Below, piece after piece: positions 2,060 to 57,100 of a stretch of 64,000 bases of DNA. The stretch lies in IMG/VR virus record IMGVR_UViG_3300042332_000818, positions 1-64,000 of that record, one strand, 5' to 3'. The position numbers and the translations under genes were made by a program. Under the pieces are notes generated by a model. The model saw nothing but the letters and a program-made list of their open reading frames with translations. It did not search any database and was not told the DNA's origin. This stretch comes from a virus. How positions within the stretch are numbered: the first letter of the stretch is position 1; each line of letters begins with the position of its first letter.

Positions 2060-3697
2060 ATGGCAACACCTGTTTTAAATAATGGTATCTTTTTGAGAGA
2101 TACTCAGTATCAGGCATCCAGCCATGTAGATTCTTACCACCTGGTAAACATGTTGAAGTCGGCTGAGCCGATGGACATGGGTCCAGTTGATTTGTGGGCT
2201 ATGGCACAAAAGGTAGAAATGCCTTTGTACCAAATGGCTTCTTTCGGCGGTAAGAACACTATCATGGTTGACAATGCTAAAGGAGAGTACAAGTGGCAAG
2301 TTCCTGTTACTCAAGACCTTCCTTACATCATTGAAGACATTGAGACTGGCAACACCTCTAAGGGTATTGACGGAACTACCTTCAAAATTAAAGTAAATAA
2401 GCGCTCTTTCGGTCATGGTGATATCATCACCTACGATAAGTACAATGGTGCTGAAATGTACATCACTGCAGAAGATATCCTTCCTGCTGGTGACGGTTTC
2501 ATCTACACTGTACAGCTTGTAAACAACGACAACGTTAAGTTCTTGGACAACAAGTACCTTGCTTCTGGTACTAAGGTATTCCGTAAAGGTTCTGCACGTG
2601 GTGAGTATGGTGAGCGTTTTTCTGACATCGGAGAGTTTGGTGCTGGATTCCGTGAGTTCTACAACTTCGTAGGAGGTGCAGAAGCTCACGTACACTACAG
2701 CATCTCTAGCCGTGCTGACATGATGATCAAAGGTGGTCTTAACCAAGATGGTTCTGTACCTGTAACTGAGATCTGGAGAAACTTTGACAAGAACATTGAT
2801 CCTTCTATCACTTCTTTGGAAATGATGGCTAGCCGTATGGGTAAAGACTACGTTAAAAAAGCTATGGCAAATGGCTCTTTGAACCGTACCTTCTTGACCA
2901 CTCTTGAGGCTGCTCACCTGACCAAAATCTCTACTGACATTGAAACTTACCTCATGTGGGGTCATGGTGGACGTGTACGTCAAGATGGTCCGGATGATGT
3001 TCGTCTGTCTGTAGGTTTGTGGAAGCAGCTTGACAACTCATTCAAGCGTGTTTACAACAAGTCTTCTTTCTCTCTTGATATGTTCAAGGCTGAATTGTAC
3101 AACTTCTACCAAGGTCGTGTAGAACTGCAAGGTCCGGACCCCAAGCGTCAGATCATTGTTCAAACTGGTCTGGGTGGTATGAAGCTTGTTAACGAAGCTA
3201 TCAAGAAAGAGGCATTCGGAACTGGTCTTACCGGTATGGTTGTTAATGGTGATAAGTCTGGTATCAGCGCTATCTCTGGTTCTAGTGCAATGGATTTGAA
3301 CTTCGGTTTTGCATTCACTAGCTACGTGATTCCGTTCTTGGCAAACGTTAAGTTTGTTCTGAACCCTGCGTTTGACAACTTGCACACTAATGACATTGAG
3401 AACCCGTTGATTGACGGTCACCCCTTGAGCTCTTACAGCTTTGTAGTATTTGACATCACCGAAACTGGTAATGACAACATCTACTTGTTGAAGCTTTCTT
3501 GGGATAACCAATTGAAGTGGTTCTACCAGAACGGTACTATGGACTACATGGGACGTACTCAAGGTTTCCAGTCTTCTGGTAACTTTAACGGATACCGTGT
3601 GTTCATGACTCAGAACATGCCTGCTCTGTGGGTTAAAGACGCTACTAAAGTGTTGAAGATCGTTATGAGAAACCCAATCACTGGTGGATCATTCTAA
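2060..3697 (+). CDS. Major capsid protein (crAss-like)
   Basis: 545 aa with strongly optimised codon usage (AAC, TTC, CGT, GGT), followed by a terminator. Size and synteny fit the crAss-like MCP. Confidence 0.85.
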   Translation: MATPVLNNGIFLRDTQYQASSHVDSYHLVNMLKSAEPMDMGPVDLWAMAQKVEMPLYQMASFGGKNTIMVDNAKGEYKWQVPVTQDLPYIIEDIETGNTSKGIDGTTFKIKVNKRSFGHGDIITYDKYNGAEMYITAEDILPAGDGFIYTVQLVNNDNVKFLDNKYLASGTKVFRKGSARGEYGERFSDIGEFGAGFREFYNFVGGAEAHVHYSISSRADMMIKGGLNQDGSVPVTEIWRNFDKNIDPSITSLEMMASRMGKDYVKKAMANGSLNRTFLTTLEAAHLTKISTDIETYLMWGHGGRVRQDGPDDVRLSVGLWKQLDNSFKRVYNKSSFSLDMFKAELYNFYQGRVELQGPDPKRQIIVQTGLGGMKLVNEAIKKEAFGTGLTGMVVNGDKSGISAISGSSAMDLNFGFAFTSYVIPFLANVKFVLNPAFDNLHTNDIENPLIDGHPLSSYSFVVFDITETGNDNIYLLKLSWDNQLKWFYQNGTMDYMGRTQGFQSSGNFNGYRVFMTQNMPALWVKDATKVLKIVMRNPITGGSF

Positions 3698-34670: not shown

Positions 34671-37600
34671 ATGGCTAAACAGAATCAAGAAGGAACGTCA
34701 CCCATTGCCTTTAACAAGGGGATGGTAAAAGATAATGCTGATCTGTTTCACCCTGATGGTTCTTGGTCACATGCACGTAATGCTGTGAACTCTTCATTTC
34801 AGGGTGACGTAGGTGTATTATCTAATGAACCTTCTAACAAGTTCTGTGCACAAGCCCCATATACGGTTATCGGTACAATCCACATCACTGATGATGAGTG
34901 GGTAATATTTTCTACAGATAATAACAATAGTGAGATTGGCTACTTTAAAGAAGCCACTTGCACTTACACTAAAATTGTCAATGCCCCGTGCTTAGCATTT
35001 GATAAGAATCATCTTATTACAGGAGCCTCTAGAGAGAACTTTGACTGCAGTAGGCAGATCTATTGGGATGATGGAAAAAACCCATCACGTACACTAAATA
35101 TTAATAACCCTCCGTACATAACTACAAGAACTGTAGTTAATGACTGTGTGGTAAATACCCCAACAGATGAACTCAATTGTGAAGCCCTACGTTTGGCTCC
35201 TCTCTTTAAAGTACCATGTATTTCAATGGGAAGAGGAGACAATGCTGGCACTTTATATAATGGCTCATATCAAGCAGCAATCGCCTACTCAATCAACGGA
35301 CAACGAGTAACAGATTACATTGCTCTTTCTAATGTTGTATCATTGTTTGATCACGATAATGCAAATGGTTCTCTTGAAATTAAGATTACCGGTTTAGAGA
35401 CAGAAGCTTTTGAAGAGTATGAACTTGTAATTATTAGTAATACTAAGACCTTACAAGCTGATGCTAAGATTTTGGGTTACTACAGTACTAATCAGAATAT
35501 TATTAGTATTGACAATGTTGCAATCTCTCTTGTAACAGTTGAGCTATCTAGAATTCCTATTCTTAATTCTGTATATGAGAAGTCTGATGCAATGTTTCCA
35601 ACTGGAGACTACCTTATCAGAACAGGAGTATACGAGCGTTTTAATTTTAACTACCAGCCACAAGCAAACAAGATTAAGAGCAGATGGGTTGCTGTAGAGT
35701 ATCCAGCAGATTACTATCTAAATGGTAGTAATCGTGGTTACATGCGCGATGAGCAGTATGCTTTCTTTATTCGTTGGGTTTATAACACAGGTGAAAGATC
35801 ACTTGCATACCATATTCCTGGAAGAGCGGCATTATCCTCTGATTTAGAGAATGTTGTTGGTAATGACGTAATTTATTCTAATAAGAGTAAGCGTTGGCAG
35901 AACTACAATACTGCTACAATTACTTCTGCACAGACAGAATTACTTTCTGATGGAGGTAAGATTATTGGAAGAGGTGAAATGGGTTACTGGGAATCTACAG
36001 AAAGATATCCTGATAACAAGCCGGAACGTTGGGCTGAATTGTGTGGTAAACCTATTAGACACCACAAGTTTCCGGATGATGGATTGATTCCTAGACATAA
36101 TGTTGATGGAACTAAGATTGTAGTTCTTGGCGTTGACTTTACCAATATTACCGTTCCTGTAGATAATGACGGTAACCGAATTGATTCTATTGTAGGTTAT
36201 GAGATTCTTAGAGGATCAAGACTTGGTAATAAAACTATTCTTGCTAAGGGTCTTATTAACAACATGGGTACTTACCAGTTGCCTGGTGAGAGAGAAGCAG
36301 ATGATCAAACTATCCTCTTTACAAACTATCCGTTTAATGACCTAAGAAAGGATCCCTTTCTTTCTACCAACTTTGTAAAGGGTGGAACTGCACTTAATAA
36401 TCTACAGGTTGCAGAGCTAGATACCTATAAGGATAATAAAAGATACTTTTCTTTTCACTCACCTGAGTTTGGTTTTAACAAGACTTTTTTATCTGCTACC
36501 GAGCTTAAGGTTTATGGTGAAGCATACGGTAAAACAAAAGGTAAGTTTATTGAACCCAGTGAACATCCCAAGCATGTAATTATTAGAAACCTTACAGCTT
36601 TGGTTTCTTTGCTTTTGGGTCTTGGTAAGTTGGATAAACACTTAAGAGGTCAAAGAACATTTACATTACCAAATGTTCCAAGTATAATAAGAGGTGGACT
36701 TCTTCCTCCCTCTGCAGGAACTCTTGATAGATGGGCTACCACACTTGGCACTTTGCTTGATCCTTCAGGTGCTGCTCAATGGGCATCACTTGGTTTTTTA
36801 ACACAAGATATTGAAAGTTCTGATCTTAATGATTTACCCCAACCTTTAAGAGCTGCGGCAGCTATTCCTGCCATTATTAGGGGACTGACCGAGGGTACAA
36901 ATGACTACCTTGATAAGTTTTATGATTTTCTTCAGTACAGACAGCATGCCTTACAACATGTTGCTTATGGATTTTATAATCAGTTTAAGAAAGCACCGGT
37001 AGGTAATACTCGTAGATTGATTTCAGAATCTGCTTATGTGTATCCTCAACTTCAACAGTTTGAAAACAGAATCTCTGTAAATAATCTTTATAGAAGTAGA
37101 ACTGTAGTATTTAAAACTGGTAGTGATCTACAGCATCCTACTATTGTAGATGATTCTCGTTATACTGTAGGTCAGTCTCGTTCTTGGAAGAATCCGTTTG
37201 ATGAAAAGGTTCGTAATATTTCTTCGCACTATGGTGCAATGAAGATTGATTACGAGAATCAATATGGTCAGATTGATAGTACTATTATTCTTCCAACTGG
37301 TTGCAGATTTGTAATTCCTGGATTTGTACAAAATGGACAGAAGTTTACTTCTCCATTAGTATTTGGTGGTGATATCTACATCAATCGTTATACAGAGAAG
37401 AATACAATGTTCTTCTTTAATAACTGGATGACAGATCAGCCAGATGGAACTGTATTTGACTATACAAAATACATTAACGTTCCGTTCCCAACATATTGGA
37501 TGAATACAGAAAGATGGGAGCTTGAAGAGTTCTTCACTGGAATTGGTGACAATATATCTAACTGGGTTTCAGGATTGTTTAGCAGTAGCATTGCACAACA

Positions 37601-39374
37601 GAATAGAGAAACTATTCCTGATGCCGCAACTCTTCCTTCCAATCTTCATAACCTAGACATGAATAGAAGTCTGGTTAATAGTATAGGTTTTGGGATTAGA
37701 TATGGTTACATCTATTTGTTTAGCTCTGGTGTTAAAGACTTTTTTGTAGAGTCTGAGTTTAATACTGCACATAGAGATCATGATGATAGACCTGAAACTC
37801 GTCACTATGATCATAAAGAATACACAAGACTAGAAGATTTATTTGATATTAAGATTATTACTACTGGTAACTACTACAAGTACGATCTTACTCTTAATAT
37901 CTCTAACTTTCCAACTCAAAAGTATACTCACTCTATTCTTCAAGCTCGTTACTACAATCCGGTAACCGCAGAAGATTGTGAGATCTACTATCCCACAAGA
38001 GCTATTTACTCTTTACCCTCTACAAGTAGTACGCAGATTAAAGATCCTTGGAAGGTTTTCTTAACTAATAACGTTTATGATTTTAATAGCCGTGTTGCTA
38101 ATATTAAGATTAACGTTGATGGAACGTTTTTAATTCTGCAGGAGAACCATCCTCCTTTGAGATTCTTAGCTCAGGATACTCTTCAGTTGGATCTTGGTAC
38201 TAAGATCTCTGTGGGTGATGCTGAAGTATTTGAGAGAGCACCACAGGCTTTGCTTGCTGCTGATTCAGGATATGAATATGGTACATGTCAGAGCACGTTT
38301 GGATCAACGTCTACACCTTACGGTGTATTCTGGATGTCATCTAAGCAAGGTAAGATTTTCCAGTATTCTGAAGGATTAAAAGAAATTTCAAGAACCGGTA
38401 TGAAGTGGTGGTTGTCACGTTACATGCCCTTTATGATTCTTGAAGACTTTCCGGATTTTCCGCTTACTGATAATTCTGTAAATGGTGTTGGAACATCGGT
38501 AATCTTTGATAGCACCGAAGAGCTTGTATACTTCAGTAAGAAGGACTACATGCTTCGTCCAGAGTTTAAAGGACAACTTGTGCATGTTAGAGATAATCAA
38601 TTTGCTCTTGCTAATAACCGCCTTGTAACAATTACTCTGCAGGATCCAAATTATTTTGCTGAAGCTTCTTGGACTTTGAGTTATGACTTGAAGACCAACT
38701 CTTGGGTATCTCTACATGACTGGCATCCGAATCTTATGATTCCTTCACAGTCACACTTCTTCTCAATTAAGGATGACAAACTGTGGTTGCATAATGATAC
38801 TTGTCAAAGCTTCTGTAACTACTACGGAGCGGATTACCCATTTGAAGTAGAGATTCTATCTAATACAGGGGTAACGGTAACCACACTTCGTAGTGTAGAA
38901 TACCAAGTAGAAGCTTATCAATACAGAGAGAACTGTTCTGACGCACACCATGTGTTAGACTTCAATTTCGATAGAGCTGTTGTGCATAACTCTGAACAGG
39001 TTTCTGGTATGCTAAAACTGAATCTTACTCCTAAGAATAACTCTGCTGCAATTCTTACTTACCCTAGAATAAACGTTTCTGATATTGATATTCTTTACAG
39101 TAAGGAAGAGAATAAGTATAGATTCAATCAGTTCTGGGATATTACCCGTGACCGTGGTGAGTTTAGCACTGTACGTAGAACTATTTGGAATACTGAACCC
39201 AATGGTTATATCAGAAATCTTAATACTGTAAACCTAGACTATACTAAGGATCCGCATCAGCGTAAGAAGTTTAGACACTATCATAACCACATTATGTTTA
39301 GAAAGAACTTTAGTGGTAACAATCATATTCTTTTGAACCTAGCTACTGTTAAAGTACAATACTCACCACGATGA
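34671..39374 (+). CDS. Muzzle / tail stabilisation protein
   Basis: 1567 aa, beta-propeller-like, with F.KGM.KD start, GYMRDEQYAF and WTLSYD....WVSLHDW.P motifs typical of the crAss-like stabilisation protein. Confidence 0.8.
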   Translation: MAKQNQEGTSPIAFNKGMVKDNADLFHPDGSWSHARNAVNSSFQGDVGVLSNEPSNKFCAQAPYTVIGTIHITDDEWVIFSTDNNNSEIGYFKEATCTYTKIVNAPCLAFDKNHLITGASRENFDCSRQIYWDDGKNPSRTLNINNPPYITTRTVVNDCVVNTPTDELNCEALRLAPLFKVPCISMGRGDNAGTLYNGSYQAAIAYSINGQRVTDYIALSNVVSLFDHDNANGSLEIKITGLETEAFEEYELVIISNTKTLQADAKILGYYSTNQNIISIDNVAISLVTVELSRIPILNSVYEKSDAMFPTGDYLIRTGVYERFNFNYQPQANKIKSRWVAVEYPADYYLNGSNRGYMRDEQYAFFIRWVYNTGERSLAYHIPGRAALSSDLENVVGNDVIYSNKSKRWQNYNTATITSAQTELLSDGGKIIGRGEMGYWESTERYPDNKPERWAELCGKPIRHHKFPDDGLIPRHNVDGTKIVVLGVDFTNITVPVDNDGNRIDSIVGYEILRGSRLGNKTILAKGLINNMGTYQLPGEREADDQTILFTNYPFNDLRKDPFLSTNFVKGGTALNNLQVAELDTYKDNKRYFSFHSPEFGFNKTFLSATELKVYGEAYGKTKGKFIEPSEHPKHVIIRNLTALVSLLLGLGKLDKHLRGQRTFTLPNVPSIIRGGLLPPSAGTLDRWATTLGTLLDPSGAAQWASLGFLTQDIESSDLNDLPQPLRAAAAIPAIIRGLTEGTNDYLDKFYDFLQYRQHALQHVAYGFYNQFKKAPVGNTRRLISESAYVYPQLQQFENRISVNNLYRSRTVVFKTGSDLQHPTIVDDSRYTVGQSRSWKNPFDEKVRNISSHYGAMKIDYENQYGQIDSTIILPTGCRFVIPGFVQNGQKFTSPLVFGGDIYINRYTEKNTMFFFNNWMTDQPDGTVFDYTKYINVPFPTYWMNTERWELEEFFTGIGDNISNWVSGLFSSSIAQQNRETIPDAATLPSNLHNLDMNRSLVNSIGFGIRYGYIYLFSSGVKDFFVESEFNTAHRDHDDRPETRHYDHKEYTRLEDLFDIKIITTGNYYKYDLTLNISNFPTQKYTHSILQARYYNPVTAEDCEIYYPTRAIYSLPSTSSTQIKDPWKVFLTNNVYDFNSRVANIKINVDGTFLILQENHPPLRFLAQDTLQLDLGTKISVGDAEVFERAPQALLAADSGYEYGTCQSTFGSTSTPYGVFWMSSKQGKIFQYSEGLKEISRTGMKWWLSRYMPFMILEDFPDFPLTDNSVNGVGTSVIFDSTEELVYFSKKDYMLRPEFKGQLVHVRDNQFALANNRLVTITLQDPNYFAEASWTLSYDLKTNSWVSLHDWHPNLMIPSQSHFFSIKDDKLWLHNDTCQSFCNYYGADYPFEVEILSNTGVTVTTLRSVEYQVEAYQYRENCSDAHHVLDFNFDRAVVHNSEQVSGMLKLNLTPKNNSAAILTYPRINVSDIDILYSKEENKYRFNQFWDITRDRGEFSTVRRTIWNTEPNGYIRNLNTVNLDYTKDPHQRKKFRHYHNHIMFRKNFSGNNHILLNLATVKVQYSPR

Positions 39375-41113
39375 AGAAGTCAAAGCTTGGATATAAGAGA
39401 TATTCTCCGGATGTAAAGAAGCCGTATAATGTCATTCCTTCTGGTAGAATTACTATGAAGGATGTAGACTTTCCGGTATATGGAGTAGATAATATTGGCT
39501 ATGCTCAGGTAATGTATCCTGGAGGAGAATATCAATTTCCTGGTAATCAGGTATTTGAAGTACCTATGGCTCAAGTTGGTGCCCAAGTACCGCAACCTTT
39601 TATTCGTCCTGACTTTTTTACACCTGCACAAATACGCCAAGCAAAGATTGATCTAGCTCAAAATAAAAAACCTTTAACTACTGAAGGTAGAATTAATGAG
39701 ATGTTAGGTGATCCAAAAAGTAGAGCTGCTGATCTTTCACAAAAAGTTGCACCTAAAGGTGAAGGCCCGGTAGACAATATTAGACATACTGTTGCTGGTA
39801 TGTATACTGCTGATGCTATTGCTAATAAGTTAGCACCGTATCCAATGGGTCCTACAACAATTCCAGCAAAAGCATTAGGTTTTGTAGGTTCAAATCTTGC
39901 AGGACTTGCACATGAAGTAAAAGCATTTGTGCCAAGTTTGGAAGGTGACTATAGAAATATTCCTGCTGTTGCTAGGATGAGTGCTGAAGACATGATTAAC
40001 AACTTTGTTGGATCAGCACTTTCTCTTAATCCGTTTATGACTGAAAAAGAAAAAGAAGATTTTATTGTAAAGATGTCTTATGAAAATTATCTTCCAGATG
40101 GTTATGTACAAATAGATCCTAAGCATTCTAAAGATTTATATTTTAAAAAACAATATGGTGGTGATTTAGAGGAGTTTGGATCTGGTGGTTTAAAGCAATG
40201 GTTTGCTGAGAAGTGGGTTGATGTAAAGACCGGCAAAGAATGCGGACGTTCTGGTAAAGACAAAGACGGTAGACCGTATCCTGCATGCAGACCAAGTAGA
40301 AGAGTAAACTCTACTACACCTAAGACTACTTCTGAAATGTCATCTGCTGAGAAAGCTAAGTTTAAAAGTGTAAAGACTTCAGGACAAAGAATTAATTATA
40401 ATCATAAGAGAGCTCAACAAGGGGGACAACTATCTGCATCTGCTAGATATCAAACGGGTGGTTTTATGATACCAGAAGGATTATCACCAGCATTCTTTAC
40501 TGGTATGAAAGATGCAGTAGTGGATGCTTTTAAATCTTTTATGGCTTCTCCGGATGAACCAGTGGCTAAACCTAAACCTACAGACTGGAGAAAACTTTCT
40601 AGACCTGAGCAGATTGATTATGGTATCAATCAGATCGTTGCCCTAGAAGATCCTAAGAATAGAAAAGCTGTTGAGAATCTATTACAGGCTACTGCTTATA
40701 TGGAGAATACATATGGTACAAATCCAAAAGCTTACGGTAGAAACTATACATCTTCATTCATGTCTATTGATCCTATTGCCTTAACTGATATGTTTACAGG
40801 TAGAGGTAATCAGGGTGCTTATAATGCTGCACAGCAAAGACAGTTTGAAAACTTTAAGAGATTGAATCTTCCCACAGATAAGAACAAGTTTAATCAACTT
40901 CTTAGAGAAGATAATCCTGTTGCTGCAATGGCTGCAGCTAGATATAGATATGCTTTGTCACCACAAGCATTACCGGATCCAAATAACTCACGTCAGTTAT
41001 TTGACTATTGGTTGAAGAACTATAATGGTAATGGGGTATTGAAGTACAAATCAAGAGAAGAAGCATTCAAAGATTTTCAAAAGGCTTACCAAAAAGCTAT
41101 TAGTAACGATTAA
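39371..41113 (+). CDS. Mosaic cargo protein with GG-delimited modules and a C-terminal lysozyme-like domain
   Basis: 580 aa; modules are separated by KQYGG, FGSGG, AQQGG and YQTGG. Confidence 0.65.
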   Translation: MKKSKLGYKRYSPDVKKPYNVIPSGRITMKDVDFPVYGVDNIGYAQVMYPGGEYQFPGNQVFEVPMAQVGAQVPQPFIRPDFFTPAQIRQAKIDLAQNKKPLTTEGRINEMLGDPKSRAADLSQKVAPKGEGPVDNIRHTVAGMYTADAIANKLAPYPMGPTTIPAKALGFVGSNLAGLAHEVKAFVPSLEGDYRNIPAVARMSAEDMINNFVGSALSLNPFMTEKEKEDFIVKMSYENYLPDGYVQIDPKHSKDLYFKKQYGGDLEEFGSGGLKQWFAEKWVDVKTGKECGRSGKDKDGRPYPACRPSRRVNSTTPKTTSEMSSAEKAKFKSVKTSGQRINYNHKRAQQGGQLSASARYQTGGFMIPEGLSPAFFTGMKDAVVDAFKSFMASPDEPVAKPKPTDWRKLSRPEQIDYGINQIVALEDPKNRKAVENLLQATAYMENTYGTNPKAYGRNYTSSFMSIDPIALTDMFTGRGNQGAYNAAQQRQFENFKRLNLPTDKNKFNQLLREDNPVAAMAAARYRYALSPQALPDPNNSRQLFDYWLKNYNGNGVLKYKSREEAFKDFQKAYQKAISND

Positions 41114-41115
41114 CA

Positions 41116-41152
41116 TTTGGAAATCTCCCATAAAATAACGAAATTATATAGA
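41116..41152 (+). promoter_or_regulatory. Possible promoter (variant box)
   Basis: TAACATTTG also precedes the 28625 promoter; followed about 20 nt later by CGAAATTATA. Confidence 0.35.
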
Positions 41153-41171
41153 GGACTTATTGTATTTTATC

Positions 41172-43067
41172 ATGGCTAATAAACCTACTAACCCCGCACT
41201 CTACTCTAGAGTTAAAGCAGAAGCAAAAAGAAAATTTGACCGTTGGCCTAGTGCTTACGGTTCAGCTTGGCTTGTAAAAGAATACAAGCGTAGGGGTGGT
41301 GGCTACCGTAAAGCAGAAGACGGTATGGAAGTACAAGACTCAGTTAACCAAATGATGGCAGACTTGAGCATGATGGCTAATGGTGGTATCATGTATGGTG
41401 ACTATAAGTTTCCAATGATGGATGAAGGTGGTGAAATGGCATTAGGTCAGATTGCTGCTGTTACTGATAAGATGTCTAAGCTTCAACAGTTTCTTAATCC
41501 AAACTCAGATGTTGAACCGTGGGTAGCGTCTAAGCTTGCTGTAATGGATGATAGTGCTGGTGCTATTTATGATTACATGATGTATAATCCTGAAGCTCAA
41601 GAGTCAGAAGAAGAAATGGAAGAAATGCGTAATGGTGGTATACCACAACGCTACAAGAATCAAGGTTTTACTAGAGTTGGTGCTAAGAGACAGTCTACTC
41701 GTCCTGGTAAGAAATGGATGGTGCTTGCTAAGAAAGGTGATAAGTACAAAGTAGTACACGGTGGCTACAAGGGTATGAGTGATTACACCCAACACAGAAA
41801 TAAGAACAGACAAAAGAGATTCTGGGATAGAATGGGTGGACGTAACTCAGCAAAGGCTACTGATCCGTTTAGTCCTCTTTACTGGCACAAGCGCTTTGGT
41901 ACTTGGGCAGAAGGTGGTGAACCACAGAATGAAGGATTCCAAGCATTACCGAAAGAAGTACAAGCTAAGATCATGGCTAACATGATGTATGGTGGTGATA
42001 TGTATGCTACTGGTGGTATGCCTTGCTATGAGTGTGGTGGTGCTACAATGAAAAAAGGTGGTACGCCATTTATTGCAATGGCTTACTTTAAGGATGGCGG
42101 TATTGAACTAGATCCTGCTAAGAAGGGCACTTTTAAAGCACAGGCTACACGTATGGGTCTTAGTGTACAGGAAGCTGCCAAAAAGATTTTGGATGCACCA
42201 GAGGGCAAGTATTCACCTGAGATGAGACGTAAAGCAAACTTTGCTAGAAACTTTGCTAAAGCTTACGGTGGTATGATGGAATACCAAATGGGTGGTTCTG
42301 GGATGGGTAACATGTATTTAGATGAAATGGCCTTTGATTCTGGAATGGCTGGGTTATCTGATGCACCACTTAGTCCAGATATTGCTGGAATGAGAGAATA
42401 CTCTCTTGATCAGCAAGCAGCTCCTGCTGGATTTGTTTCAGATATTCCTGCACCAGCTAGAAGAGGTGCTGGATCAGGTATGGGTCAAATGGCCTTAGAT
42501 GAGTTTGCTTTTAATCAAGCTATGACATCTATGGAAGACGCATCTCAGCAAGAACCAGAATTGGATTTTTCTGCATTTGAAAACATGGAACCTCAAATGG
42601 AGATTTCAAGTGATGAAAAGGTTGAGTTCATTCCCGGTAGAAGTAAGAACATGTATGCCACTAAAAACTTTGTAGCAGGACTTAAAGGACCTAAAGGAGA
42701 ATCTAATCCTTTTATTGCTGGTAATATTGGCAATAAGTCATTCATGGTACAAGCAAGTGACTTTGCTAAACCCGCAGCAATTGCTAGTGGTATACTTGAT
42801 GCTGGTGCATGGCTTGGTAGAAATAGAAAAGAGCGTCAGGCTGCAAGAGAGATTCAACGCCAATCATTTACAGATAATCTTTATCAAGCTGCTCCCATGG
42901 GAATAACAGGTGAAAGAGGTAATTATGATGTTTTTGGTAACTTTAGACCAGACGAAACAATATCTTCAAGAACTTACTACACTCAAATGGGTGGTGAGAT
43001 TGAAATGACTGAAGACCAAATTAGACAACTTGTAGCTCTTGGAGCTGAAATTGAAATCCTTGACTAA
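41172..43067 (+). CDS. Mosaic polyprotein of small modules separated by about 12 xxxGG motifs
   Basis: ATG at 41172 preferred over TTG at 41160. Motifs MANGG, MDEGG, MRNGG, WAEGG, MMYGG, YATGG, YECGG, MKKGG, FKDGG, KAYGG, YQMGG, TQMGG. Confidence 0.7.
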   Translation: MANKPTNPALYSRVKAEAKRKFDRWPSAYGSAWLVKEYKRRGGGYRKAEDGMEVQDSVNQMMADLSMMANGGIMYGDYKFPMMDEGGEMALGQIAAVTDKMSKLQQFLNPNSDVEPWVASKLAVMDDSAGAIYDYMMYNPEAQESEEEMEEMRNGGIPQRYKNQGFTRVGAKRQSTRPGKKWMVLAKKGDKYKVVHGGYKGMSDYTQHRNKNRQKRFWDRMGGRNSAKATDPFSPLYWHKRFGTWAEGGEPQNEGFQALPKEVQAKIMANMMYGGDMYATGGMPCYECGGATMKKGGTPFIAMAYFKDGGIELDPAKKGTFKAQATRMGLSVQEAAKKILDAPEGKYSPEMRRKANFARNFAKAYGGMMEYQMGGSGMGNMYLDEMAFDSGMAGLSDAPLSPDIAGMREYSLDQQAAPAGFVSDIPAPARRGAGSGMGQMALDEFAFNQAMTSMEDASQQEPELDFSAFENMEPQMEISSDEKVEFIPGRSKNMYATKNFVAGLKGPKGESNPFIAGNIGNKSFMVQASDFAKPAAIASGILDAGAWLGRNRKERQAAREIQRQSFTDNLYQAAPMGITGERGNYDVFGNFRPDETISSRTYYTQMGGEIEMTEDQIRQLVALGAEIEILD

Positions 43068-45310
43068 TGAAAAGAAAAGTAAGAATCAAGAGCTTGCCGA
43101 AAGGGTATCACATGATGCCTGATGGTACTGTTATGAAAGACAGTGCTCACATGGCAGAAGGTGGATCAGTTAATAAAAGTCTTTCACCTGTTTCTAGAGG
43201 TATGGCAAATCTTGAAGCTGAAAAGGGTGAGATTGCTATGACTGATCTTGGCAGCACCGGTCAGATGGGTTTATATGAGATTGGTGGTCAGCGTCATTCT
43301 AATGGTGGCACACCTCTTAATCTTGATCCAGGATCTTTTATCTATTCTGATACAAGAAAGATGAAGATTAAGGATCCAGATTTTCTTGCCAAGTATGGAA
43401 AAAGTAATCCTACTACACCTGCCAAGCTTGTAAAGCCTTTTCTTAAGTTAAACGATTTTACTGATTCTTTATACGATCAAAATGCAGATCCTATTCAAAA
43501 GAGAACTGCACAAGCTATGATTGATAAGTATAAGGGTAAAGCCGGTGAGATTGCATTCTATCAAGAAGCAATGAAAGGATTTCCACAAGGTATCCCTGCA
43601 GTAGCTGCTGATTATGCTGAAGGTATTATGGGTGCTCCTATGGCTGCTTATGGTGGTTATATCCCTAAAGCACAAGATGGCAAAGAGTCAAGAAGTGATA
43701 AATTTTCTGCCATTAACCCTACTGTATTAAAAGTAATGCAGCAGCGTGGACTAAAACCTCTAGCTGGTGAGGCAGATTATTCAGATCCTAATAGAATTGA
43801 TTATTCTAGAGTTCAAGATTTTGTTCCCGGATATTCAGGTGTATATGAAGATGCTGAAAAGAATTTTCCTTCTTGGGTAAAACGTATGGAGGGTCTTGGT
43901 TATAATTTTTCTGACTGGAAAGATGCTCAAGGTAATTTTGATTTGAAGTCTTTAAAAAGTAAAGATCCAAGAGTTAAAGCTTACCAAGAATGGTGGAACC
44001 CCAGAGTTGAGCAGTTTATTCAAGAGGATGAGCAAAAAAGAAGTAATGCTGGATATGAGCCTCTTACTGAGCAAGAAAAGAATGATCTGAGAACTTTGAA
44101 ATTTTCAGAGGAGAATGCTGCTAATGCACAACCAGGAAGCAGAATAGATAGTAGACTGGGAACGTATACAACTAATAGATTCCTACCTGAAGGTGAATAT
44201 GAAGTACAACGTGGTACTGTTTACTTTTGTGTAGATGGTCAGGTAATGGGTCAAAGTGTTAGACCTGGTACACAAGCTGAAGCACCAAGTGGAAACGATG
44301 TAAAAGGTCCATTTACTTCTCAAGAAGAAGCTAATCAGGTTTGTTCTAGTAAGTCGGAGACTTCTGATTCTTCTGAATCTCCAACACCTGAACAGGAAAG
44401 AGTACTCAGACCGTTTAAGGCTGATGTTAGAAACCTAGAAGCTCTTAGACGTAATAGAGCTTCTGAAAGAAGGAGATACCCCTGGGCTCCTCAGTTGCCT
44501 TTAGATTTAATGGATGCTGTATATCCTGATGATACCCGTCAGCAACAGCAGATTGCTGGACGTGCTAAAGGTTCAATGGACGCATTAGGTGCATTTGCTG
44601 GACCTTCTAGACAGTTGTCTTCGGCTTCATTAATTTCTGGACAAGCTGCTGAGCAAGCAGCCAATGTTGCATCTACAATGGGTAACCAAATTATAGGTAT
44701 TGGTAATCAAGCTGCACAAGTAAATCAAAGAGTAAAGGCTGATAATGATAGAGCCAATTCACTACTTCGTAAAAGTGTTTATGATGACACTATAAAGACT
44801 GAAGAAGTATTTGATGAAAAGATGAGAAGATATAGAGTAAATGATGCTCTTCTTGCTAATCGTCTAGAAGATAATATGTATCGTGCTGATACATATAACA
44901 AGATGAATCCCTTGTATCAGATTACACCTGCTAAAGGTGAGTACTATAATACCGGAAACATTCAGTTTATGCCGGGTGTGTCTGCTGCAATGTTTGACTA
45001 TGAGAATTATACTCCGCAAAATCAGGGTGCAGAGAATGCTCGTAAAGCTAATTATGAAACTTTCATAAAAGATCCAAATCTTACACCTGAAGATAGAAGT
45101 GAGCTTACTAAACAATATTACTCTAGTTTACTTGGAGGAGGCTCTGGAAGTAGTCAGAGTACTGGAACCCGTTCAAGAAAAAGAAGAGATGATGAATTGG
45201 CTGCTCTTGATCAGTTAAGACAAAGACAACAACTTGCGGAAATGTACGGAGTAGATCCCCGAATTGTAAGCCCTGGTGGATATTATGATCCAAACTCTTT
45301 TGGTATTTAA
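43067..45310 (+). CDS. Cargo (internal virion) protein
   Basis: 747 aa with ANLEAEKGE, G.RHSNGG..L and FIYSD motifs typical of crAss cargo proteins; Q/A/N-rich helical C-terminal part. Confidence 0.65.
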   Translation: MKRKVRIKSLPKGYHMMPDGTVMKDSAHMAEGGSVNKSLSPVSRGMANLEAEKGEIAMTDLGSTGQMGLYEIGGQRHSNGGTPLNLDPGSFIYSDTRKMKIKDPDFLAKYGKSNPTTPAKLVKPFLKLNDFTDSLYDQNADPIQKRTAQAMIDKYKGKAGEIAFYQEAMKGFPQGIPAVAADYAEGIMGAPMAAYGGYIPKAQDGKESRSDKFSAINPTVLKVMQQRGLKPLAGEADYSDPNRIDYSRVQDFVPGYSGVYEDAEKNFPSWVKRMEGLGYNFSDWKDAQGNFDLKSLKSKDPRVKAYQEWWNPRVEQFIQEDEQKRSNAGYEPLTEQEKNDLRTLKFSEENAANAQPGSRIDSRLGTYTTNRFLPEGEYEVQRGTVYFCVDGQVMGQSVRPGTQAEAPSGNDVKGPFTSQEEANQVCSSKSETSDSSESPTPEQERVLRPFKADVRNLEALRRNRASERRRYPWAPQLPLDLMDAVYPDDTRQQQQIAGRAKGSMDALGAFAGPSRQLSSASLISGQAAEQAANVASTMGNQIIGIGNQAAQVNQRVKADNDRANSLLRKSVYDDTIKTEEVFDEKMRRYRVNDALLANRLEDNMYRADTYNKMNPLYQITPAKGEYYNTGNIQFMPGVSAAMFDYENYTPQNQGAENARKANYETFIKDPNLTPEDRSELTKQYYSSLLGGGSGSSQSTGTRSRKRRDDELAALDQLRQRQQLAEMYGVDPRIVSPGGYYDPNSFGI

Positions 45311-51100: not shown

Positions 51101-54100
51101 CTTAAGCCTTACGCTTTAACTAAAGAAGAAGATGTAAAAGAGCAAGAGATTGCTAAACAACGAGAAGAGGCAAAGGCTCAACCTAAAGCTGCTGATACAG
51201 AAGAAGCAAGAAAGACAGCTGAGGCTATTAAAATAGTTGCTCAAATTTCAGCTGCTGAGATGGATAATCCTCAAGCTTACAGAGCCTTGGTTGCTGAGAC
51301 ACCAGAAGTTGCAGAAGTTCTTGCAGACTTTATGGATGCTGTTGGTGATAATAGAGAAGCGTTTGAGTTTATTGTTACATCTGAAGGTACAGCATTTATG
51401 GCTTTTGTTAAAAAAGCTGTTGACGCTAAGAAGCTTTCTTCATTTGCTAATGATTCTTTGAAGAGATATCTTGGTAGCCAAGCAGCTTTGAATAGTCAAG
51501 TTCTTAATGATGCATTTGATAGTATCATTAAAGGTGAAAAGTATCAAGATCTAGGGGTATTCCTTTCAAAGTTTGTTAAGGTTGCTAAGGTTGAAGGTTT
51601 TGAGAATGAATTAGGTGAGGGTGTTAAACTACTTGCAAGCTATCCAGAACAAGATCTTTATTTAGTTTCGCTAGAAGATTATGAGAATGTTGCAGAGGGA
51701 TCAACTGCTCAGGTTCAATACTGGGTAATTAACTCTCAGCAGGTTCCTAATGAGGTAATTCACGCTAATGATAAGATTTATGTAGATCTTGACGCCGCTA
51801 AAAATGCCTTAGCTGATTTTCTTGAGACAGGATCTGTAAACACAAAGAAGAACAGATTTACTTTTGATGGTAATGTTCTTCGTCCTGGAACAGTAATACT
51901 TAATTCTAACGGTACAAGATATCAAGTTATTGGTGTTGCTAGTACAGATGAGACAGGTAGAGTAAATGCTATTCAAATTCAAAAGCAGAATAGTAAGAAT
52001 CGTCCTGAGACAATTAAAAACTTCAATGGCTACACTGTACAAACAGATATTAAAGTTTCAGAAGACGCATCTAAGCTTAGCCCTACTGCAGAATTTGGTT
52101 ACGTTAAGAGACCGCAATTTGTCACAGGAGAGCACAATGTAAAGCTTTCAGAATACTACAATTCTGTTAGTGAAACGGAGTTTCTTGAAAGTTTGGTGTT
52201 TGAAGTATCCGCACCTATGGGTGGTGAGCTTACTGAAACTAATCTTCAATACGGAGGAAGAGGTGAAAACCCAAGAATAAAGAAGCGTTCTACTGATAGA
52301 GGATCTGTTGCTGTATATGCTGTAGATCTTACAGGTGAACCTTTGCTTCTTGGATATCTTAATGATCCTAGAGAATACATATTCTACTCTGCTGATGGTA
52401 AGAGAATGGAAATCCTTACTAAAGAAATGGTTAACGCTGACCTTTTCTACGGTACACCTAATGCAGATAATGTAATCAGAGCATACAACAATAGTTTAAA
52501 TCTTTACGATTACTTAGTATCTGCACGAGGTTCTAACAACATGGCTAGAATACCGTACTCTGAAGTAAGTCAGTTTGCAACTTTGAGTCTTGCTTCTCCT
52601 GGATATTTATTTGCTGGAGAGGACAAAGTATCTTTTTCAGATCTTAAGTATAAGACTTACGACGGTTCTACTGTTGTAATTGATAGATATCAAGGAGATG
52701 CTCCTATTGTTCTTTCTGGTTCTTTGACATTTGATCAAGTTAAAGAAATTACAAGTGTAGTCAACAGCTCTAAAGCAGTATATGAGAATCTTGGGCGTTA
52801 CGTTCTTGTATCAAAGATTCCTAATGGTAGAGTAATCTTTACTGAACTTAGCGCTAAGCAAATGGAAGCAACCGAAGCTGAGGCTTTGGTTAAAGAGTTA
52901 GTTGCTGCAGCAAGTAATAAAAAGCTAAACAAGAAAGAATTTGGTGATCAGTTTAATAGTAAGTTGTTCTTTGCTTATACCGGAAAGGACACCTTTAATG
53001 ATAGCAATGTTAAGTATAAGGTTACTTTTAATATTGTAGGAACTGAGGATAAGCTTATTGAAGCTTCTTTCTTGCCTTTAAGTGGTTCTGTAAAAGCTGA
53101 ACAAAAGATTCGTTTTGCTCCTACTGCTAAATCACTGGAAGAGTTTATCAATCTCTTTAATATTGCGATTGAGGAAAACAATAAGCAACTTGATAAGAGT
53201 GCTAACCTTAAGTATGTAAAGCTTGATCCTGTAGGTGCTGATAACTTCTATCAGAATATTTCTAAGAATATTACACAAGACGATCTTGCTAATACTAAGA
53301 GTAATGTTACTCATCCGGAGATGATCTCTGTTAATGGTATCAAGATTGTTGATGTGGCAGGTGCTACACCTATGGGTGCAGTAGTTGAAGATATGACCAG
53401 TAAGCCGGCACCAGCTGTAGTACAAGAAGAGCTTCCCGCTATTACAGAACCCGTAACGGACATTTCTGATGTAGAGGCTAAGAAAGCTGATATAGAAAAT
53501 AATGATTTTGTAATTAAAATAAAAAAGATAGGACAGAGCTATGCAGGAGGAAAACAGTTTGTTAATACAAAACAAACAGGAAAAGAATTTTTAGAACAGG
53601 TTAATTATGAAATGTATGGTGAAAAAGTTCAAGCAGAACATTTATTATATTTTAAAGATAAATTTGATGGAGCATTATATGATTTAATTAATAGAGGATA
53701 TAAAGAGCTTACTGGTAAAACTTTTGAAGAGTATGATGCAGAACTAGCTGCTTTAAAACAACAACCTACATCTACTACTCAACCATCTACTAGTGTTAAA
53801 GAGGGAGTAGAAGAAGGTGCTCAGCCTTCCGCAGGTATAGAAACTTTTGTTGACACTCTTTCTGTTTTTAATAACGATATGCTCAAGCAGGACTTGCTTG
53901 TTGCAGAAGCTGAGCTTGAAAGCTACAAGGAAGGATTAGACATTGATCAAACTTTTGATAATCCTGAACTTGACAGATTAGAGAACAGGGTTAATGAGCT
54001 TAAGAAGCAATTAAATATTGCTTACAAGAATGTTGATTCTTACACTCCAGAGACTCAGCAAGAACTTGCAAACTTCCTGGATTGGGTTAAGAACTCTTTG

Positions 54101-57100
54101 CCTAGTTACATTGAGGTTGCTACAGTAGAGACTATTGCTGATCGAATGATCAGTGAAGGAATTACTGTTGGTAGATTCTCTACTATTGTAAAGAATGCAG
54201 GAGATAACATCAATGAGATCTCTGGTCTAATTGAGATTGTTAAAGACTCTCCGGCTAAGTATCACGAAGCTTTTCACTCAGTATTTAGACTAATCTTAAC
54301 TGATAAGGAAATACAGAGAGCTCTTGCCCAGGGTGAAAAAGAGCTTGTGCAAAAACTCAAGACTCAAGGTAGAAGTCTTGATTCTGTAATGAATGAGTAT
54401 AGAAAGCAACCTTTCTACTTTTCAATGACTACTCAAGAGCTTAAAGAAAGAGTTGTAGAAGAATATCTTGCTGATACGTTTGAAGAGTTTAAAAAGAATC
54501 CAAGAGCTACAAATACTGCTGTATCAAACAAGTCTACTTTTAGAAAGATTATTGACTTTTTGATTAATCTCTTTAAAGTTTACCGTCCTAGATTTGAATC
54601 TAACGATGATTTGTTTGAGGGAATTGCTGACGGAAGATTTAGAAAAGCCGGTATTGCTAATAACAAATACACCAGATCTGCAATAAACAATGGAGGTGAT
54701 GTAGCCTTTGCTGTAATGCTGAACAAAGGTTCGGTTAGTGTTTCTACCGGAAGCGGTATAGAGGTAATTCCTCAATATGTAAACTCACAAGATACTCAGT
54801 ACTTGATGTCTGCTTTGGTATCTAGAGTTTACACAACCTTGCAGGCTGATCCATCAATTCGTACAAGTGAAGCAATTAAGTTTGCTATTATAGATTTTGC
54901 TAGACTGTTTAATCCTGAAAGATATTCAAATGTTGAACTTAAAGAAAGAGCTTCTGCTCTTCTTTCAGCATTGAAGTCTCCGGTTAACCGTTCTGAAATT
55001 GAGCAGCACATTAGAGAATCTTTAAAGACGTTTAATAACGTTAGAAATCTTCTGAATGATGCTCAAGAAGAACTTGAAGAAGACTTTGGTGGTAATACTT
55101 CTAAGTCATTCTTTAAGAGTAAGGAAGAGCTTGATGGTGTAACATCGTTGCCGACAGTGGTAAAAGCTTTGATAAGCACCACTCCTGTTGTAGAGGCTGA
55201 TGCTTTTGGAAATGAGTTCTTTGTAGATAGAGAAGGCAATCTTACAGAAGAAAGAATTATTGTTCCTGCTTCAGTACAATTGGTTTATAATACTATCACA
55301 AGAATCACAGCGGATAGTGTTGATGAGATTGAAGCGCTAAATAGAATGCTTGCGTTTACTAGATTTAATTCAGATTCTAGTAAGAACTCTCACGGTGTTC
55401 AGTTTATCAATCACGCGTTTAAGGTGTTTAATATTGTTGCAGATGATTCAGGTGCTATAACAAAGCAAAGCTTGCTTAACGTTAGAAACGCTGCTACATA
55501 CCAAGCGTTTATAAAGGCGTTTGCTGAAAAGAGTAAGAGAGACTACACATTTACAGCGGTTGACTCTAGAAATAAGAAGAAGAAGTCTTATGACGCCAAC
55601 AGAAGATCTGAGGGAACTCTCCAATATGATTCTTGGAGATCTGCTTACAATGCAAAGGTTGATTCAATAACGGATGAGACTGCAAAAGAAGCTGCTGATA
55701 TACTTTCTAATCTTACCTCTATTGTAAATAACGTTGCTGTTTATGATCAGAGTGTTTCAACAGCAGTAAAAGACGGGCTTACTCGTTTTGGTGATATTAC
55801 TGGAATTGAAATAGCTCCAGCTTTCTACGAATACTCTTGGTACAAGTACAAGATCTCTGAGAATAAACTTGAAATGACTGAAGCTAACGCTGAAGTTCTT
55901 TCAACAGTTAGACTTTTGTCTTTACCTGTATTAACACCTGAGATCCTAAATCAAATTGGTAAATCTTTACTTGAGAATAAGGGAACGGGTCTTTTCCTTA
56001 GAGATGATTCAGAAAGTTCTAACGAAGAATTGTACACTGTTGGTGGTAGAGTAAAAGCTCTTGCTTCGGGTAATGTCTTCTTCAATGAGAACATTGATAC
56101 AACAAGCTTTACAAATGCTAACGGTAACAAGATTCAGACTTACCAGGTAAAGACTGTACTTACTAAGTTGGTTCAAGCTTTAAAGCAAGGACTTCCTACA
56201 GATGCATACAGAGCTGATAACTATTTGGCTAATAACAAAGAGTTCTTGGCAATACTTCCTGAGATTAATACTAAGTCAATTGACGGTCTTGCTGCTAGAA
56301 GTCTAGATAATGCGGGTGTAAGCTTTAACCAACAAGCCGGTACTGTATACGCTGACTACACTGACAGAGAGTTCTTGTTTAATATTCTTTCTCAGTACAC
56401 AGAGGTAGAGGTTATAAATGGTGTTGTTACAGTACCCCATTTTATCAGAGTACTAGAAGCTGCAAGTACCGGTATGACGGTAAATCTCCCTGTTACAAAA
56501 GCAGTAGACTTTAAGACTACCGGTTGGACAGTTAATTCAGAATACCTAGATGCGCTAGTTGCTGAGGTAGAAAGAGACGTTAGAAGAATTGCAGAAGTTC
56601 AGGATCAGATTGAAAAGGTTGAGAATCCTGCACTTGATGAATCTGAACTTGATTTTGACATTATTGAAAATTATCATAGAGGTGATAAGCTTGGTCTAAA
56701 GTTGTCTCACAACTTAAGATCTCTTCTGGGTGCAGAATTTTCTGAAAAGATTGAAAGCGGTTTAGCTACGGATGCAGAACTTAGAAAGAATCTGGAGTCC
56801 TCTCTTATTAAAAGTGTAGATCAGTTTGTTGATAAGCTCATTCAGAATAATCTTTTACAAAGAAGAAAAGGATTGCTTGAAATAGGAGACAGTCCTTTGG
56901 TGTCAGTTGTTGGTCGTTCTGGAATAGCTGCTTCTAAAGCTGCAAGATTTGTAGAAGACTTGAATCTTTTTCCTATGCAGGAGAAAGACGCACCGGGTGT
57001 TAGAAACATTAGACTCGAAGCTTCTATTGCTCAAATCTTCTTATCTAGTTTCTTGAACGTTTCTTCTTTCAACCAGCTTTTGATGGGTGATCATAACAAA

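Follow-up and report, generated by a model that had tools for sequence, protein, structure and literature searches.

Three consecutive genes of a marine crAss-like phage, here called gA, gB and gC, encode predicted internal cargo proteins in which a short motif, consisting of Met, Tyr, Phe or Trp (sometimes Leu), two variable residues and Gly-Gly (GG), stands at the borders of small modules. The motif is real, with its weight in gB and gA: it is enriched in these proteins, conserved among their homologues, positioned at module borders, and the site at which cassettes are gained and lost between relatives. The genes lie in virus record IMGVR_UViG_3300042332_000818, which is 119,389 bp long and rated 100% complete; the first 64 kb of this record are termed the window. 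We tentatively favor a reading, to which we give slightly less than an even chance, in which the junction is a structural joint or binding arm that stays uncut in the virion.

Enrichment and conservation of the Gly-Gly motif

A preliminary description of this DNA, made from the letters alone, had listed 18 pentapeptides ending in GG in the three proteins. All 18 were located, as were the degenerate copies AQVG (gA 67–70), AEDG (gB 52–55) and AQDG (gC 202–205), and gA, gB and gC together contain 26 distinct GG sites. Enrichment over the whole proteome, the check that had been suggested, was also found. With the 122 open reading frames (ORFs) of the whole genome as the reference set (gA, gB and gC plus 119 others), the pattern [MYFW]xxGG occurs 15 times in the 1,962 amino acids (aa) of gA–gC vs 25 times in the 35,235 aa of the other 119 ORFs, a ~10.8-fold enrichment (Poisson p ~3e-11). 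When overlapping GGG runs are scored twice, which gives 28 counts for the 26 distinct sites, the motif-bearing share of GG counts is 15/28 in gA–gC vs 25/182 elsewhere (Fisher p = 9e-6); these enrichment p-values are optimistic because the pattern was picked after the sites had been seen. A looser rule, with M, Y, F or W anywhere in the three residues before GG, gives 20/26 vs 61/161 elsewhere (p = 2e-4).

In shuffle tests with 2000 shuffles per protein, gB carries 10 copies vs 1.41 expected, a count reached by 0/2000 shuffles, gA carries 3 vs 0.46 expected (p = 0.01), and gC carries 2 vs 0.62 expected (p = 0.13, not significant alone). The same enrichment is absent in the upstream muzzle protein, in the downstream protein gD and the giant protein that follows it, and in two glycine-rich fibre-like proteins. 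The statement that three genes carry the motif therefore holds for the copies, which are present in all three, but not for the enrichment, which is confined to gB and gA; the wording was somewhat overstated because gB holds most of the signal.

The motif is conserved well beyond the window. Of 8,000 candidates scored in a search with gB, 1,121 proteins reached E ≤ 1e-3, and the 120 homologues listed of these 1,121 contain 6–15 motif copies each (mean 10.6). In an alignment of 56 of the listed homologues, whose mean column identity is 19%, the gB GG pairs 159–160, 252–253 and 611–612 are invariant, and GG 46–47, 278–279 and 285–286 together with G75, G90, G313 and G314 either do not vary or are conserved in at least 90% of the sequences. 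Within the tandem array of motif copies in gB, Y277, G278, G279, Y282 and G285 hardly vary, and G286 and G313 do not vary at all. The residue directly after GG is variable among the gA–gC sites. Sites of the same kind are present in gp45 of crAss001, where an aromatic residue falls within three positions before GG at 9/20 sites, and in the homologue of Dulem virus 41. Distant marine cargo polyproteins (1,493–2,590 aa; muzzle 36% identical) contain 4–6 motif copies each and also repeat a motif-initiated mini-unit, which recurs as the C-terminus of gB. A literature search, with supplements not covered, found no description of the motif.

Modules and their exchange at the motif

The near relatives L001 and L002 have muzzle proteins 97% and 94% identical to that of the window, yet their cargo differs by cassettes. 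At the AQQGG-QLSASAR-YQTGG site of gA, L001 has ~410 extra residues that form two modules bounded by AQAG, YQQGG and YQLGG, and L002 lacks one 12-residue unit. Residues 206–445 of gC are replaced in L001, the divergence beginning just after AAYGGYIPKAQDG. In a further relative, modules of gA and gB occur in a single 1,003-aa chain in permuted order with the motif at every joint. Homologue alignment thus bears out the earlier suggestion that the phage can add modules: relatives differ by gain, loss and rearrangement of modules, in many cases precisely at the motif.

The association is quantitative. Of the internal BLASTP block ends (n = 3,405), 39.8% lie within 2 aa of GG vs 13.9% for random positions, and 495/3,405 fall exactly on the second G, which is 5.2 times the GG density and ranks GG first among the ten dipeptides that occur 600 times or more (KK, 0.3). 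Comparison of gB with 120 homologues gave 42 distinct indels that measure 35 aa or more; both ends are within 5 aa of GG in 15 of them (~3.4 expected) and one end in 14. Shorter indels (n = 82) show no link to the motif, 7 being motif-to-motif vs 6.5 expected. The border rule is supported for module-sized events and is not absolute.

An AlphaFold2 model of gB computed with the 56 sequences contains three confident islands, at residues ~8–50 (DUF5872 N-terminal half), ~151–250 (Tlr6F) and ~324–364 (helical); the remainder has a predicted local distance difference test score (pLDDT) below 50. Block means of pLDDT are 57–79 in the Tlr6F island and 54–82 in the helical module. Of the 15 distinct GG sites in gB, 11 fall in segments with pLDDT < 50 and 2 at the edges of islands, the other 2 lying within the Tlr6F island, so that the model fits the notion of beads on a string. 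The claim that motifs sit at module boundaries is consequently upheld by homologue borders, indels and fold islands, but fails for the two GG inside the Tlr6F fold and for a share of the large indels, given below.

Several of the modules are separate genes in other viruses, in line with the modular character that had been proposed for gA–gC. The N-terminal module of gA is found in ~17 fused forms (173–2,357 aa) that head cargo polyproteins and in 13 standalone ORFs (68–94 aa). Its tblastn matches stop at query residues 63–83 in 29/35 loci. In the fused forms the module is followed by junction variants such as PLAQIG, PMAQGGG and PMKKQGG, of the general form P[ML]AQxG or xKxGG, and then by unrelated sequence; the standalone modules end where the junction begins in the fused forms. 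One relative joins the N-terminal module directly via FGKGG to the DUF5872 C-terminal half, and in another the module is followed by the helical module that begins at gB residue 315. The standalone form was observed as a 68–94-aa gene amid small basic genes in seven smaller, non-crassvirus-looking IMG/VR phages, in which a 109–116-aa ORF with HEMVH or HEAVH followed by DQ[MI]KRGD lies 1–1.8 kb upstream.

The DUF5754 domain of gB corresponds to the protein known as Tlr6F, which occurs in polinton-like viruses, giant viruses and phages (PMC12220804). A search for short homologues of gB gave 794 at E ≤ 1e-3 of 2,012 candidates. Dozens of these are standalone DUF5754 proteins of 91–98 aa that start with M(A)IPERYK and end with GTW, which is exactly gB 161–250 between MRNGG and WAEGG; some standalone Tlr6F proteins end in a W-E-x-G-G tail. 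A standalone DUF5872 N-terminal half of 56 aa is gp70 of Roseobacter phage CRP-2, and the helical module of gB is deleted motif-to-motif in 4 homologues. Searches of PDB sequences gave no match for gB, 1 chance match for the C-terminal domain of gA and 4 chance matches for gC. Assignment of the gA C-terminus as a lytic transglycosylase was dropped, as no match in the PHROG and PDB searches pointed to it.

No recognised cell-wall enzyme was found in gA–gC. Cargo polyproteins of related marine crassviruses (L019, L028, L032, L024, L003/L006, L004 and L005) contain two to three LysM domains, YkuD, phage lysozyme, GH19, DUF2272 and PG_binding. In the T4-like cyanophage Synechococcus phage S-BM3, a 337-aa protein encoded beside the small terminase gene strings DUF5872-type halves and small Cys-containing modules together via KKGG-type sites; the design of beads and GG may therefore extend beyond crassviruses.

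Table 1. Features of the cargo region and its neighbours (coordinates are those of the window)
Feature	Position	Strand	Evidence
Muzzle gene, 1,567 aa; upstream anchor of cargo block	34671..39374	+	Pfam PF25731 crAss_MUZ E=2.8e-22; PHROG virion structural proteins
gA, cargo gene 1, 580 aa, 5 GG sites	39371..41113	+	ORF call and GG contexts; shuffle p=0.01
Conserved N-terminal module, gA 4-65	39380..39565	+	tblastn, 35 loci
Degenerate junction PMAQVG, gA 65-70	39563..39580	+	similarity to most relatives stops here
DUF5872 C-terminal half, gA 258-338, preceded by KQYGG and FGSGG	40142..40384	+	Pfam PF19197 profile 41-112, E=4.5e-12
AQQGG-QLSASAR-YQTGG, gA 348-364	40412..40462	+	cassette gain/loss site in relatives (alignment)
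Conserved C-terminal domain without assigned function, gA 426-576	40646..41098	+	phrog_3108 E=1.7e-11
gB, cargo gene 2, 635 aa from TTG, 15 distinct GG sites	41160..43067	+	ORF call; motif count reached in 0/2000 shuffles
DUF5872 N-terminal half, gB 9-51, ends KRRGGGY	41184..41312	+	Pfam PF19197 profile 1-43; confident fold island
DUF5754/Tlr6F domain, gB 161-250, flanks MRNGG (156-160) and WAEGG (249-253)	41640..41909	+	Pfam PF19058 (match 178-225)
Tandem array of five motif copies 7-13 aa apart, gB 275-314	41982..42101	+	conserved; pLDDT <50
Helical module common to gut crassvirus C1 cargo proteins, gB 315-369	42102..42266	+	tblastn, BLASTP
TQMGG and C-terminal mini-unit, gB 608-635	42981..43064	+	recurs in distant cargo polyproteins
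gC, cargo gene 3, 747 aa, 6 distinct GG sites	43067..45310	+	ORF call; motif enrichment not significant for gC alone (p=0.13)
gC stretch, putatively gp45-like	43199..43546	+	BLASTP gC 81-154 vs gp45 466-534 E=2.5; likeness to Dulem virus 41 pattern by eye
Giant virion protein, 4,492 aa	48182-61660	+	BLASTP to crAss001 gp47 and gp50; DFDAD motif
HExxH...ExxxD domain, giant protein residues 1919-2249, candidate metallopeptidase	53936..54928	+	HEAFH 54263-54277, EEYLAD 54458-54475

Possible roles of the motif as joint, processing site or docking tag

We predict gA–gC to be the internal, ejected cargo of a crAss-like phage that is marine and infects Bacteroidota; they would correspond to the C1 cargo protein of crAss001 (gp45), enlarged and split over three ORFs. 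Residues 309–375 of gB are 64% identical to the post-muzzle C1 cargo protein of Dulem virus 41 (BLASTP E = 5e-23). By tblastn, the helical module matches cr10_1, cr108_1, cr128_1, cr50_1 and Dulem virus 41; it lies inside the post-muzzle protein in cr108_1 and cr128_1 and is a standalone 75-aa gene in cr10_1, with a 20-residue leader ending in YKNGG. The BLASTP match of gB to gp45 371–455 is marginal (E = 0.057), and gA and gC gave no significant BLASTP match to gp45 or to Dulem virus 41 C1. Like the Crassvirales C1 proteins (gp45, PDB 7qog and others), the window cargo directly follows the muzzle, contains the helical module and carries the same kind of motif; unlike gp45, it is encoded in three ORFs with extra modules (Tlr6F and both DUF5872 halves), and the overall similarity is marginal.

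In the crAss001 structure, gp45 residues 425–552 have clear density as a single compact portal-bound domain, which has an ordered arm at the portal wing loops that interdigitates with them, and pieces of gp45 are located both in the tail barrel, with an ordered helix at 214–245, and on the capsid side of the portal (PMC10172136). The 425–552 domain includes GG427, GG434 and GG447; because all three are inside this ordered domain, they are not cut in the virion.

We infer from these observations a joint rather than a cleavage site, together with a link to threading. Each cargo protein would be a string of small self-folding modules (N-terminal, DUF5872 halves, Tlr6F/DUF5754, helical gp45-type and others), in which the last hydrophobic residue of the upstream module, two variable residues and Gly-Gly would form the joint to the next. 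The Gly-Gly may close one module so that the following one can fold, unfold and thread the portal and tail channel independently, and tandem copies may form an extended arm that packs on a partner, as the stretch of gp45 bound to the portal does. Surviving insertions, deletions and swaps would cluster at the motif because only joints there leave both neighbours intact, and the junction would act as a plug-in site for accessory modules in the phage lineage. The conserved tandem array in gB suits a binding arm better than a set of redundant cut sites.

A number of points weigh against this uncut joint. A plain flexible joint would not need so specific and strictly kept a motif, and the conserved junction motifs of other polyproteins are often processing sites. 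Short basic leaders ending in the motif start the cargo ORFs (gC, residue 33; gp45, residue 21; the 75-aa protein of cr10_1, residue 20). The neighbouring giant virion protein contains a conserved HExxH...ExxxD domain, and HExxH is also present in related cargo polyproteins. Of the 42 large indels, 13 touch no motif, and the model of gB as a whole is poor (mean pLDDT 41.9, predicted template modelling score 0.29), low confidence being no proof of flexibility. The mass spectrometry of crAss001 is uninformative on intact size, because it was tryptic and performed on one excised whole-sample band (PMC10172136). Gel bands of 85 and 100 kDa are given in the text of an earlier study, which does not name the one that corresponds to gp45 (90.8 kDa) (Shkoporov 2018, PMC6235969). 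The accessible part of the published gp45 description makes no mention of the motif, cleavage or processing (PMC10172136). Literature searches found nothing on proteolysis of a Crassvirales cargo protein and, for cryo-electron microscopy since 2023, no further crassvirus structure.

The junctions could alternatively be processing sites at which a packaged peptidase, either the HExxH...ExxxD domain of the giant protein or embedded HExxH modules, frees small proteins in the head or after ejection. This is a serious possibility, which we hold to be less probable than the uncut joint. It is the main idea of the preliminary description with a different protease, and early effectors, among them Tlr6F and the DUF5872 halves, would be set free. 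A specific motif at the borders of modules that are elsewhere separate proteins is what such processing would leave, and the motif-terminated leaders point the same way.

The candidate enzyme has a well-conserved signature. The sole HExxH among the 122 ORFs (~37,000 aa) is at residue 2028 of the giant protein, and the signature spans residues 2028–2098. An HExxH with a downstream ExxxD is the zinc site of thermolysin/neprilysin-type peptidases (gluzincins), and HEAFH...EEYLAD contains both elements. A search with giant protein residues 1850–2300 returned 191 library representatives at E ≤ 1e-3, mostly 4,000–5,700 aa long; in the aligned rows from the 150 listed of these 191, the H, E and H of HExxH are kept in 147/147, both Glu of EExxAD in 145/145 and the Asp in 142/145. 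The signature is shared with gp47 of crAss001, which has YHEAFH and then EENMAE. In 33 related loci, 22 HExxH were counted in 127,987 aa of + strand ORFs, vs the single one in the genome of the window; zincin-looking contexts occur inside cargo polyproteins (L019/L020, L024, L028 and L032), and 109–116-aa ORFs with HExxH lie near standalone modules in 7 loci. Separate fragments would, in our view, also explain the presence of gp45 in both tail barrel and capsid side without 12 chains threading the portal. Zincin-like peptidases have been predicted to process virion-delivered polyvalent proteins (Iyer et al. 2017, PMC5512222).

The evidence against processing begins with gp45 425–552, which is continuous through three motif copies. 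Thermolysin-type enzymes select a hydrophobic residue after the cut, but the residue after GG is variable here; conserved tandem copies 7–13 aa apart would yield useless peptides; and some copies are placed by the model within folded domains. The HExxH domain gave no peptidase match in Pfam or PDB sequences, the 29 weak PDB matches being to haemagglutinin coiled coils. Pfam likewise confirms no peptidase in the HExxH regions of the related loci, and these loci are not independent. A six-frame search of the 119,389-bp genome with Peptidase_C5 (PF00770) and C48 (PF02902) gave no match at E ≤ 10, although distant members could escape such a search. There was also no match at E ≤ 10 in the whole genome for C39 (PF03412), the prohead-type S77 (PF03420), S78 (PF04586) or ClpP/S14 (PF00574), and PHROGs searches of 20 structural-region ORFs named no protease. 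Protease maturation as originally proposed is not supported by these searches, in which none of the families was matched. The adenain-type site rule [MIL]xGG that had been invoked is fitted by eye by only ~2/26 sites (MMYGG and SLLGG), the hydrophobic residue lying mostly three positions before GG. A 432-aa 'peptidase' of cr10_1 with HEISH was also considered and rejected; it is unrelated to the 421-aa ORF of the window between the portal and capsid genes and has no Pfam peptidase match.

The narrower proposal that the gluzincin-like peptidase of the gp47-like giant protein cuts the junctions, so that crassviruses inject small free effectors swappable as cassettes, is rather unlikely. If it were true, it would account for gp45 pieces in both tail and head, and Tlr6F, which belongs to the core genes of polinton-like viruses, virophages and giant viruses, would for the first time be placed in a functional context. 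Few Tlr6F peptides, below threshold, were detected in PgVV particles (bioRxiv 10.1101/2022.07.28.501842).

A role of the motif as a tag for docking or packaging, in which each copy would bind portal wing, tail-barrel rings or capsid wall and thereby load its module, is improbable. Such a role would be consistent with the three copies in the ordered gp45 arm at the portal wing loops, with the start of the tail-barrel helix 4 residues after GG209–210 of gp45, with the conserved tandem array, and with the W-E-x-G-G tail of some standalone Tlr6F proteins. However, most standalone modules lack the motif, and the copies per protein far exceed plausible sites per chain; copies in long low-confidence stretches are neutral in this respect.

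There is very little to commend the notion that the motif is mainly a recombination scar, with GGTGGT microhomology driving illegitimate recombination and the peptide functionless: 17/28 GG counts are coded GGTGGT, and AQQGG-QLSASAR-YQTGG in gA resembles the remnant of a deleted module because the first residues of the second L001 module are retained, but GGT makes up 66% of glycine codons in these genes, so that ~12/28 would be expected anyway, the flanking codons vary with the peptide pattern kept, the motif is invariant across sequences of 40–60% identity and reaches gut crassviruses, and short indels are unlinked to it. This codon usage led us to reject DNA-homology recombination as the main cause.

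Genome setting and known systems

The cargo genes come immediately after the muzzle gene and precede the genes of the virion RNA polymerase. The placement given in the preliminary description is confirmed by the muzzle family PF25731 on one side and, on the other, by a giant protein that contains DFDAD and matches gp50. Downstream of gC on the same strand are gD (931 aa) and then the giant protein, which matches crAss001 gp50 over residues 3301–3776 (BLASTP E = 2e-11; DFDAD at 3467) and gp47 around residues 1966–2156 (E = 5e-4). Because of the muzzle family and these two matches, the gene order is taken to be that of crAss001, in which muzzle, cargo and RNA-polymerase proteins follow one another (PMC10172136). 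The single 4,492-aa ORF merges gp47-like and gp50-like regions that crAss001 encodes separately; Pfam and PHROGs recognised nothing in it. A megablast of the cargo region against 50,697 phage records gave no match.

Within the block, an ATG at 41172, four codons inside the TTG-start ORF of gB, is the start used by L001. In L002 (4298–6126), the gB ORF ends at 478 aa and is followed by ~390 nucleotides without a long ORF before gC; a frameshift, a misassembly or a genuine truncation could underlie this. Opposite-strand ORFs in the cargo region are short and spurious-looking.

The architecture is reminiscent of several known systems. Adenovirus protease, pS273R of African swine fever virus and Ulp1-type enzymes cut after Gly-Gly, and viral polyproteins are processed in this way. 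As in adenain-type systems, virion proteins here have a hydrophobic residue and then Gly-Gly where functional units meet, but the hydrophobic residue of the window motif is one position further from GG. Polymorphic and multi-effector toxins have junction motifs of their own (VENN in CdiA, DPxGL in Rhs, Leu sites in MARTX), and there too a short conserved motif parts a constant region from exchangeable cassettes and marks the swap point; the cargo proteins differ in having many junctions per protein, in riding in a phage particle rather than a secretion system, and in the lack of sequence relation. The internal proteins of T4 carry a capsid-targeting leader that is removed by the prohead protease. 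They resemble the cargo as small accessory proteins with a short N-terminal leader that are loaded in the head and injected, but here no S77 (gp21-type) protease was found and the motif is internal and repeated, not just N-terminal.

The cargo proteins are a variant of the known polyvalent proteins, and their modular plug-in nature is well supported. As in polyvalent proteins, many unrelated domains share one virion-delivered polypeptide, cell-wall enzymes occur in relatives (lysozyme, GH19, YkuD and LysM), and there is an association with zincin-like HExxH domains predicted to process them (PMC5512222). Several unrelated domains were found in the cargo chains: the DUF5872 halves, DUF5754 and the gp45-type module; gB models as three separate fold islands. 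Unlike polyvalent proteins, the window modules are very small (20–100 aa), have no assigned functions and share one short junction motif at their joints. A zincin-like metallopeptidase is embedded in ~36% of polyvalent proteins (Iyer et al. 2017, PMC5512222), whereas gA–gC contain no HExxH and their relatives partly have one inside the cargo polyprotein. The accessible part of the same study makes no mention of a linker or glycine.

Crassviruses are the most abundant human gut viruses, and a standing question is how ~5 MDa of internal protein are loaded into their particles and ejected (PMC10172136). The motif is common to marine and gut crassvirus cargo and provides a simple rule for splitting otherwise unannotatable proteins into modules, and it suggests that accessory cargo is added in plug-in fashion. 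Whether the junctions are cut bears on the published model of one gp45 chain that spans tail and capsid. Tlr6F/DUF5754 and DUF5872, small families without assigned function from phages, polinton-like viruses and giant viruses, are now placed in a virion cargo gene; the prediction that follows is that virions package them and deliver them along with the genome.

Three further ORFs are encoded downstream of the cargo block (66445–68373, 69503–70993 and 70990–72111). One protein combines a signal-peptide-like start, a cohesin domain and a type IX secretion system (T9SS) C-terminal sorting domain, and a Bacteroidota host is suggested because of this T9SS domain. A 496-aa protein is very glycine-rich (28 overlapping GG, 0 with the motif), and a PA14-domain protein is also encoded beyond the cargo block. 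Secreted host-type proteins are unusual for a lytic-looking phage. No tRNA genes were found in the 64-kb window; tRNA-Thr(TGT) (97031–97104) and tRNA-Arg(TCT) (101796–101868) are located in the replication half of the genome.

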